Shown: in pieces, positions 30,614-30,879 of the stretch
Layout: each line of letters starts with the position of its first letter
How positions within the stretch are numbered: position 1 is the first letter of the stretch
From: an uncultured Clostridia bacterium
GTDB taxonomy: Bacteria; Bacillota; Clostridia; TANB77; CAG-508
Assembly: GCA_947632525.1 (NCBI GenBank)
Contig: CANRPQ010000002.1
Coordinates: forward strand, 1 to 32,604
Direction of reading: 5' to 3'
Length of the DNA: 32,604 bases
The notes under the pieces: generated by a model
What the model was told of the DNA's origin: nothing
Databases searched by the model: none
What the model saw: the letters and a program-made list of their open reading frames with translations, nothing else
Translations under genes and position numbers: made by a program

Positions 30614-30879
30614 TAGCATAACTAGATTTGTATAATAAAAGTGCAGACCGCGCAAGGTGAGCGAAGCGAACGCCTGTCGTTGTCTTCTGCTATTCGTGCC
30701 AAAATGTTGTATATATCTTTTTTCTTTCCACTTCGGACGCTCCGCTACAGGGTCCCTTGCCTTTCAGGCATTCCCTATACCTCGTTCCACTACAAAATGA
30801 TATATACAACATTTTATGCACAATAAGAGGAGCAACGTCCAGCAAGGTCAAGCGTTATTATACAAATCTAGTTATGCTA
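30614..30879. repeat. Composite palindromic GC-rich intergenic element (25-bp perfect terminal inverted repeats) between nrnA and truB
   Basis: tagcataactagatttgtataataa (30614-30638) is the exact reverse complement of 30855-30879. The interior is GC-rich, partly self-complementary, and carries copy 2 of the core repeat. Confidence 0.75.
30701..30815. repeat. Copy 2 of the GC-rich core (30718-30804, inverted relative to copy 1) with its own 17-bp perfect flanking inverted repeat
   Basis: aaaatgttgtatatatc (30701-30717) is the exact reverse complement of gatatatacaacatttt (30799-30815). The core is about 94% identical to rc of 18197-18283 by hand alignment. Confidence 0.75.

Follow-up and report, generated by a model that had tools for sequence, protein, structure and literature searches.

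Copy 2 of a GC-rich hairpin core between nrnA and truB: apparent membership of a many-copy repeat family in uncultured gut Clostridia

In an uncultured Clostridia bacterium (assembly GCA_947632525.1, contig CANRPQ010000002.1), a GC-rich core sits within a hairpin that is itself enclosed by a larger palindrome, between the genes nrnA and truB. The same core occurs once more, in the opposite orientation, between disA and ppi (copy 1), in the same 32,604-nt stretch of DNA, the whole of which is here termed the window. This raises the question of what kind of element the copy between nrnA and truB (copy 2) is, how it came to be nested and whether it acts as RNA or as DNA. On the comparisons described here, copy 2 appears to be a member of a many-copy, apparently undescribed family of hairpin-forming, non-coding repeats in uncultured, AT-rich gut Clostridia. 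With moderate confidence, it is read as a mobile single-strand hairpin repeat, similar to repetitive extragenic palindromes (REPs), REPINs or miniature inverted-repeat transposable elements (MITEs), that would work in its single-stranded form. Many intergenic copies, sharp borders, filled and empty sites, modules, nesting, perfect arms and flips together point to a small non-autonomous repeat of this kind, whilst an invariant 30-nt segment, a hairpin conserved in shape and a bias towards one strand suggest an enzyme that reads a folded single strand.

Alignment confirmed that the copy 2 core (30718-30804) is the reverse complement of the copy 1 core (18197-18283) over 87 nt, at 94%. The likeness between the two copies ends at most ~5 nt (TATAT) beyond the core and the flanks are unrelated, so segmental duplicates with longer common flanks, which the original prediction had named as one outcome that would overturn it, are ruled out. 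The same prediction had described a perfect 17-bp inverted repeat around the core and had placed this inner hairpin inside a larger inverted-repeat element, 30614-30879; both descriptions hold, with 30701-30717 pairing with 30799-30815 and the larger element ending in 25-bp arms that are 100% complementary. A scan of the window found the arm sequence AAAATGTTGTATATATC exactly at 30701-30717 on the plus strand and 30799-30815 on the minus strand, with no further site in the window even when 3 mismatches were allowed, and the inner inverted repeat can be followed for 22 nt at 95%.

The two-copy family originally envisaged is true of the window alone, as dozens of core-bearing contigs are present in gut sequencing runs. 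Runs holding the core are numerous and come from rabbit, rat, mouse and other gut metagenomes. In two of them, 63 (X13) and 44 (X5) contigs could be aligned on the core, with a summed depth of ~1000 compared with 6-17 for single long copy-bearing contigs; their borders are sharp and their flanks differ from one another and are very AT-rich. In the runs of the source sample, 38-54 contigs match the core at >=93%, and depth falls from 300-430 over the core to 60-110 over the arms and ~10 over unique flank. Across all these runs, summed depth on the core comes to 300-1100, and to 5-10 on the unique flanks. These copy estimates are depths summed over contigs and organisms in metagenomes rather than per-genome counts. 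In other genomes the core borders are again sharp, at 30718/30719 and 30798-30805. That the likeness of the two copies is due to chance or to simple duplication of a piece of the window, as the sight of only two copies there might suggest, can be given almost no credence, being refuted by the unrelated flanks and by the same core in other loci, species and host animals.

At least five other loci of the source sample carry the core between arms of the copy 2 type (AAAATGTTGTA/TATATC ... GATATATACAACATTTT/GGCA), one of them on the contig L001, a rabbit metagenome-assembled genome (MAG) of an uncultured Clostridia bacterium. By this comparison, the arms of copy 2 are the common arm type of the family rather than a local target, copy 1 carrying a diverged variant. 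L001 was also the single match when genome contigs were scanned with an exact 22-mer, and it possibly belongs to the same genome as the window, its flank also being present in the source sample. Three JGI metagenome-contig matches to a 19-mer were dismissed as chance matches in GC-rich coding DNA. Viral contigs gave 0 matches for three patterns, and blastn against phages and plasmids returned nothing relevant.

The inner unit, 30701-30815, is 115 nt long and consists of AT-rich inverted arms of 17-22 bp around a conserved core of 71-87 nt, with the following parts:

30701-30717, plus strand: left arm of the inner hairpin, AAAATGTTGTATATATC, pairing perfectly with 30799-30815; the common arm type of the family.
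30718-30798, minus strand: conserved core, for which minus is the better-folding strand; it scores 128 bits with the covariance model R1.
30723-30734, minus strand: internal direct repeat 2, GAAGTGGAAAGA, whose GAAGUG forms the 3' strand of an alternative helix B with 30793-30800.
30734-30744, minus strand: mini-hairpin P3, CGGA-GCG-UCCG, invariant, with GUAG just before it and lying within the invariant stretch 30730-30759.
30746-30779, minus strand: central hairpin P2/P2a, UAUAGGG-AA-UGCCU-GAA-AGGCA-AGGGA-CCCUGUA, a variable structural module.
30782-30793, minus strand: internal direct repeat 1, GTAGTGGAACGA.
30799-30815, plus strand: right arm of the inner hairpin, GATATATACAACATTTT.

How the unit came to lie within a second palindrome can be approached through its surroundings, which comprise:

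29582-30529, plus strand: nrnA (DHH/DHHA1), the gene upstream of the insertion.
30577-30598, plus strand: partial third copy of the outer arm, CATAACTAGATTTGTATACCAT, with 0 such matches expected by chance.
30614-30879, plus strand: outer palindromic element of 266 bp, with perfect 25-bp ends (30614-30638 and 30855-30879); a separate repeat family.
30921-31799, plus strand: truB, the gene downstream of the insertion.

A sister lineage, found in the same Logan run and with 77% (TruB) and 86% (peptidyl-prolyl isomerase, PPIase) identity to the proteins of the window, carries the outer element upstream of truB (L016), and both of its halves as well as its right end can be aligned to the window. 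This sister-species copy lacks the 115-nt inner unit and has an intact apical mini-hairpin, TGC-GTTTA-GCA, at the place where the window reads GTGC-C[115-nt insert]AT-GCAC. Since the sister species has the outer element but not the inner hairpin, the nesting goes back to a real insertion event, as had been supposed, and the inner unit lies in the terminal loop of the outer hairpin. The outer repeat, too, entered between nrnA and truB as an insertion. In relatives with 70% TruB identity (L010, L013), neither element is present, and the nrnA and truB genes abut or lie 67 nt apart, a gap of 0-67 nt compared with 391 nt in the window. These comparisons suggest that the lineage of the window lost a tight nrnA-truB junction when the outer element inserted. 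Occurrence of the outer element in both the window and sister lineages marks it as the older insertion and the inner unit as the younger. Parts of the outer element are also multi-copy in gut sequencing runs. At the relatives' junctions, the nrnA stop and truB start overlap (L010, 10001) or are separated by 67 nt (L013, 9933-10001). The partial outer-arm copy at 30577-30598 is direct and lies 40 nt upstream of the left end of the outer element; it could be a duplicated end, or what is left of a further insertion.

The expected presence/absence difference of the inner element was thus found between species, in L016, whereas within five runs the copy 2 locus showed no flipped or empty form (X1 and X4 at 85% likeness; X2, X3 and X21 at 93%). 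One further spacer, L005, is identical to that of the window. Four independent low-coverage assemblies of the same species (L006, L007, L008, L009) are broken at repeats in the nrnA-truB spacer; MAG contigs that break at these repeats imply that MAG-based copy counts are too low. A contig from a 2025 rabbit-gut set of another study (run X16) carries the same composite of outer and inner elements over 30626-30747, with 3 differences in 122 nt; the X16 composite has a differing outer arm, TATAGCTAGTAC, which it carries twice. Folding predicts a single nested rod for 30610-30883 whichever strand is taken, at -101 kcal/mol (z -10.3) and -103.6 kcal/mol (z -8.2), and none of its shuffles folds equally well; with the insert removed, the outer element is predicted to fold at -66.1 kcal/mol on the plus strand and -60.5 kcal/mol on the other.

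The site of copy 1 gives a different picture of arrival. Copy 1 has the following extent:

18184-18303, plus strand: copy 1, arms and core, in the orientation opposite to copy 2.

The disA-ppi spacers of relatives (L027, L023-26 and L028, with PPIase identities of 83%, 81% and 78%) measure 61-120 nt and are free of the element, and in L027, L028 and L023 no pre-existing hairpin was found at the copy 1 site of these spacers. As these element-free sites have no hairpin, arms and core must arrive together, as a single unit. The original prediction that the core prefers the apices of hairpins or cruciforms consequently comes down to a single case, copy 2, as the empty sites of copy 1 are short, plain spacers and only one of three examined insertion sites is a hairpin. 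Within the element-free spacer of L023, at 9915-9935, lies a 12-nt perfect palindrome, TTGTAATTACAA, that resembles the outer part of the arms of the family (TTGTAA...TTACAA); the likeness may be chance in AT-rich DNA.

Copy 1 has an ortholog in the sister lineage (L021/L022), which scores 81 bits with R1; copies are therefore able to persist at one site across species. The arms of the copy 1 orthologs differ by matched, two-sided changes (TTTGTAAATATAT/ATATATTTACAA and TTAGTAAACTATAT/ATATAGTTTACTAA). In the L021 ortholog, the whole central hairpin has been swapped for an AT-rich one, so that UAUAGGG-AA-UGCCC-GUA-GGGCA-AGGGA-CCCUGUA of the window corresponds to UAUUUGAG-UUUUAC-GUA-GUAAAA-G-CUCAAAUA; the loop, closing pairs and length are kept, and the 5' and 3' parts of the core outside the hairpin are nearly unchanged. 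The central hairpin and the arms change while their pairing stays.

This retention of pairing was quantified on four full copies (copy 1, copy 2, L001 and L021). Their consensus has 99.2% of cells paired and contains 10 two-sided pair changes, compared with 3.7±1.4 in shuffles (0/500 reach 10) and 0-1 in slid controls. Among metagenome copies, 30762 T>C and 30766 A>G are found in the same contigs at equal depths, as are 30752 G>A and 30773 C>T, and variants at 30761 and 30767 match only partially. P3 is identical in 4/4 sequenced copies, and the stretch 30730-30759 shows no variant at >=1% in the 63 and 44 contigs of X13 and X5. RNAalifold prefers a long-range helix B, in which UCAUUUUG pairs with CGAAGUGR and UG with CG, including three to four U·G pairs; this helix (30793-30800 with 30728-30735) and the P3 hairpin are mutually exclusive. 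A frequent G<->A change at 30728 preserves pairing with U, and helix B has no two-sided variation among the four copies and the metagenome variants, and so no covariation support. A K-turn in the internal loop of P2 was considered and dropped, its key G being changed in L001.

A G·U pair in the UAUAGGG/CCCUGUA helix had been noted as a weak sign of strandedness. The pair is present, with further U·G pairs on the same strand, and the asymmetry proved larger than originally noted: four to five G·U pairs are conserved and the copy 1 orientation folds 3.6-15 kcal/mol better in 4/4 copies, the predicted values being:

Copy 1: -39.5 kcal/mol in the copy 1 orientation, -35.9 kcal/mol on the opposite strand.
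Copy 2: -37.1 kcal/mol in the copy 1 orientation, -31.2 kcal/mol on the opposite strand.
L001: -46.1 kcal/mol in the copy 1 orientation, -31.0 kcal/mol on the opposite strand.
L021: -38.6 kcal/mol in the copy 1 orientation, -27.7 kcal/mol on the opposite strand.

On these modelled folds, the asymmetry makes clear that the element matters as a single strand, and it does not tell RNA from single-stranded DNA. The covariation of the arms can arise at the DNA level. One-sided stem variants in metagenomes favour neither strand, at 2 vs 2.

These features raise the alternative that the core functions as a structured RNA, be it a small RNA or a cis-acting element of an mRNA, read from the strand in the copy 1 orientation, with the AT arms as its basal stem and its spread as a secondary matter. 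Such a role would account for the L021 hairpin that keeps its shape, GUA loop and closing pairs despite complete replacement of its sequence, for the paired changes in P2 and P2a, for the invariance of the unpaired and junction segments, for the conserved U·G pairs on one strand (including the frequent, pair-keeping G<->A opposite U10) and the greater stability of the sense strand, and for the retention of copy 1 at disA-ppi across species. At three of four loci, the element points the same way as the flanking genes, and contigs with the core are also present in RNA-labelled runs, among them a mouse gut metatranscriptome. However, copy 2 lies antisense to its operon, another strain has copy 1 in flipped form (see below), no promoter or terminator lies in the copies themselves, the one-sided variants are evenly split and a single-strand DNA enzyme would give the same strand asymmetry. 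The contigs from RNA-labelled runs are unstranded, with depths like those of their flanks, which fits read-through transcription or DNA carry-over. On balance, a cellular RNA is considered rather unlikely.

At gathering thresholds, Rfam 15 contains no family that matches; the best match of a relaxed search, Enterococcus-1, reached 13.4 bits against a threshold of 71.4 (E = 2.7) and, lying so far below the gathering score, is meaningless. A self-cleaving ribozyme, a tRNA-like structure and an intron domain likewise had no Rfam support. An open reading frame (ORF) of 61 aa that crosses the core (30641-30826, plus strand) is spurious, with no called protein in the collection sharing common words with it. 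An intrinsic terminator was rejected, as the arms of copy 1 place a T-run 5' and an A-run 3' and none was found at copy 2. All seven promoter-like matches lie outside 30701-30815. At each of its ends, the outer element has a TATAAT box that faces inward (30608-30636, plus strand; 30886-30857, minus strand); both boxes are consensus matches only. In principle, the box on the right could drive transcription of the strand of copy 2 that folds better.

A fixed direction of reading, on the plus strand at copy 1 and on the minus strand at copy 2, had also been suggested, and it is undermined by an in-place flip of copy 1. In another rabbit of the same study (X4), 18253-18303 is joined on one contig to the reverse complement of 18111-18181, with zero differences; on another contig, the reverse complement of 18292-18366 runs into 18184-18256. 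Of the four aligned pieces, three are free of differences and the fourth (18292-18366) has 6 differences and 4 gaps. The two junctions are as they would be with the copy 1 core inverted between its 18-bp perfect arms and the flanks fixed. The assembler word is k = 31, and since the copy 1 arms are shorter than this, the flip should not be a graph artefact. In four assemblies of the species, the copy 1 core has the orientation of the window. Given a flip between strains, the fact that copy 2 is inverted with respect to copy 1 may be a poor guide to any fixed functional orientation.

Both orientations of the copy 1 core in different rabbit samples, with clean junctions, and the location of copies 35-105 nt upstream of start codons could also be explained by a programmed inversion switch (inverton), in which the arms are recombinase sites and the orientation of the core controls truB, or ppi at copy 1. 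Five runs without a flip or mixed orientation at copy 2, no promoter-like site inside the invertible 81 nt and dozens of family copies in unrelated contexts make such a switch highly improbable. In addition, no invertase is encoded nearby, the XerD-like gene beside spoIIM in L001 being the usual housekeeping arrangement, and no dedicated enzyme is needed for long perfect inverted repeats to invert. Spontaneous inversion is known for hairpin loops bounded by short inverted repeats, through template switching at quasi-palindromes. The family resembles the products of this process in that the core is inverted exactly between perfect arms, the flanks are unchanged and the arms are perfect in each copy. 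Template switching is, however, a mutational process rather than an element family, and it leaves the spread to new sites unexplained.

The modular construction of the unit extends to its interior. The 12-nt internal direct repeat GWAGTGRAAMGA has four matches in the window, all in the two cores, compared with 0.1 expected, and in both copies it flanks a GC module of 47 nt. All four runs of the source sample (X1, X2, X3 and X21) contain hairpins with copy 2 arms in which 30723-30793 (71 nt) is replaced by 12-14 nt, with CTATTTGACTTA or CTTGATTTTACCTT as the loop and depths similar to that of the window organism. The segment replaced in these arms-only hairpins is bounded exactly by GWAGTGRAAMGA, and their loops, in a direct comparison, resemble a single copy of it at <=9/12 positions. 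Either the GC module may have inserted into a hairpin loop, duplicating the loop, or it may have been lost by slippage between the repeats. A more speculative extension, which is thought doubtful, is that of 'Russian-doll' hairpin elements, in which GC module, AT arms and larger palindrome form layers that would each insert into the single-stranded loop of the next. In such a scheme GWAGTGRAAMGA would be the footprint of the insertion of the 47-nt module, and the strand-asymmetric, invariant core would serve, in the form of RNA or of single-stranded DNA, as the module recognized by an enzyme, perhaps a Clostridial RAYT (REP-associated tyrosine transposase) that reads G(R/W)AGUG instead of GTAG.

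The arms-only forms also look like internal-deletion derivatives, which would be compatible with a classical MITE whose arms are terminal inverted repeats for the DDE transposase of a full-length insertion sequence (IS) elsewhere in the genome, the core being a passenger. Inverted ends of 17-22 bp, perfect over 17, amount to terminal inverted repeats and are common to at least five to six loci of the source sample, and insertion polymorphism is present. However, conservation is far higher in the core than in the arms, the core is also combined with other arms (copy 1, L021 and an X31 contig), the arms are perfect within each copy yet differ between copies, and the three sites with flanks show no target-site duplication, the sole direct repeat being internal. 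The only IS found near a copy (L001, 4392-6336) has ends unrelated to the AAAATGTTGTATATAT type. A classical MITE is judged improbable on these grounds. The IS near the L001 copy is an IS4-like element within 4200-6520 (DDE_Tnp_1, 584 aa) with 16-bp perfect ends (4392-4407 and 6321-6336), and was rejected as a partner for its unrelated ends. It is flanked by a ~176-bp direct duplication (4200-4375 vs 6345-6520), which is unusual in its length for a target duplication.

Among known elements, the closest are the REP, BIME and REPIN repeats, which are associated with RAYT (TnpA-REP) Y1 transposases (PMC3333891, PMC3116915, PMC2817692). In common with these, the family consists of small, extragenic, GC-richer hairpin repeats in many copies, each built around an imperfect palindrome in which mismatch or wobble positions are conserved, and copies persist for long at fixed sites. 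REPs number tens to hundreds of extragenic copies per genome; for the family, dozens of copy-equivalents are seen among metagenome contigs. Its P2/P2a hairpin is 34 nt long, contains an internal loop and keeps a U·G in all copies, and it corresponds to the imperfect palindrome of 20-40 nt that characterizes REPs. A feature of REPs is a conserved GTAG immediately 5' of the foot of the hairpin (PMC3333891), and in copies 1 and 2 a similar word is present, here GUAG-CGGAGCGUCCG, with GUAGUG 8-10 nt before the central hairpin. GUAG directly precedes the 11-nt P3 in these two copies; L001 has GGAG at this position and L021 has GGAA and AUAG. Strand-specific recognition of single strands may be a further common feature. 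Unlike a REPIN, which contains two inverted REPs of 20-40 nt, the family has one asymmetric, multi-helix core of 71-87 nt between AT arms, and as this core is not palindromic as a whole, it does not form a REPIN doublet.

Bacterial MITEs and mosaic repeats (Correia/NEMIS, ERIC, BOX, RUP) form a second comparison group (PMC3184786). Like these, the family is 100-270 bp long, non-coding, intergenic, multi-copy and modular, with inverted ends and insertion polymorphism, and both can lie within operons and fold in mRNA. Unlike them, it shows no target-site duplication, has an interior more conserved than its ends, flips its core in place and keeps its arms perfect per copy while these differ between copies. 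Precedent for landing inside a palindrome exists in IS1397, ISKpn1 and IS621, among others, which insert into REP hairpins (PMC1525189); these are full IS with their own transposase, whereas the inserted unit here is a non-coding hairpin of 115 nt. As the core forms no REP doublet, no target-site duplication is seen, GTAG is not kept in every copy and no linked enzyme was found in the loci examined, the family is not classed as a member of the known kinds. A limited, word-based literature search found no description of such repeats in Clostridia, and in REPIN and RAYT papers, searched in the same way, no mention of Firmicutes was found.

An enzymatic lead comes from relatives of the bacterium of the window. 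Three of their contigs (L023-25) encode a RAYT-like protein of 273 aa (PF01797) that scores 75 bits with NF047646 (REP-associated tyrosine transposase), against a cut-off of 80. The gene (L023, 6198-7316; also in L024 and L025) lies between a GH15 gene and radA and is flanked by GC-rich inverted repeats of 53 nt, 85% complementary, in a REPtron-like unit; solo copies of related hairpin repeats are found at 2365-2420 and 8760-8810 of L023. REP/RAYT systems are characterized by a single-copy RAYT gene between inverted copies of the same repeat. The window has no such gene, its slot between the ORF at 13669-15612 and radA (15647-17005) being 34 nt. By sequence, REP/RAYT systems thus appear to exist in the clade, and a gene of this type flanked by inverted GC-rich hairpin repeats is a further likeness to REP systems. 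Homology between the core and the relatives' repeats was considered and rejected, since these share with the core just one 14-nt word, GGAGYGTCCSAAGT (12/14; p ~0.01-0.03 uncorrected), which is not significant after correction.

Several observations weigh against the reading of a mobile single-strand hairpin repeat. No transposase or RAYT was found linked to the family in the window or at the relatives' loci examined; a different repeat flanks the RAYT of L023-25, and a search of those 62 kb with R1 gave no member of the family. The absence of a target-site duplication applies at copy 1, copy 2 and L001, conservation is higher in the core than in the arms, the opposite of what a classical MITE shows, and GTAG is not conserved in L001 (GGAG) or L021 (GGAA, ATAG). 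The copy numbers derive from summed metagenome depths and not from a closed genome. Finally, the retention of copy 1 across species and the covariation of the hairpin would also fit a selected cellular RNA.

Nevertheless, the mobile single-strand hairpin repeat remains the preferred reading, and a mechanism can be proposed for it. The element would be copied in trans by an unlinked enzyme that recognizes the folded single strand, which would offer an invariant segment of ~30 nt and a shape-conserved hairpin for recognition. The likeliest type of enzyme would be a RAYT-like Y1 (HUH) single-strand transposase, proposed because the relatives carry one flanked by its own GC-rich hairpin repeats; within the mobile-repeat reading, a RAYT partner is put forward only tentatively. 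Template switching within the hairpin, or recombination between the arms, would keep the arms perfect and cause the flips. Copy 2 would be a passenger in the nusA-infB-rbfA-nrnA-truB operon, probably tolerated rather than regulatory.

Small palindromic repeats have been well studied in Proteobacteria. The family described here is natural material for asking how hairpin repeats spread and persist, as it offers a filled and an empty hairpin-in-hairpin site, the exchange of a hairpin with its shape kept, an in-place flip and strand asymmetry. There are also practical consequences: such repeats break metagenome assemblies, as in L006-L009, and thereby affect MAG quality, and a structure of about -100 kcal/mol inserted in an essential operon matters for the reading of operon structure. 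Should its partner enzyme come to light, the family would carry REP/RAYT-type biology into gut Firmicutes.

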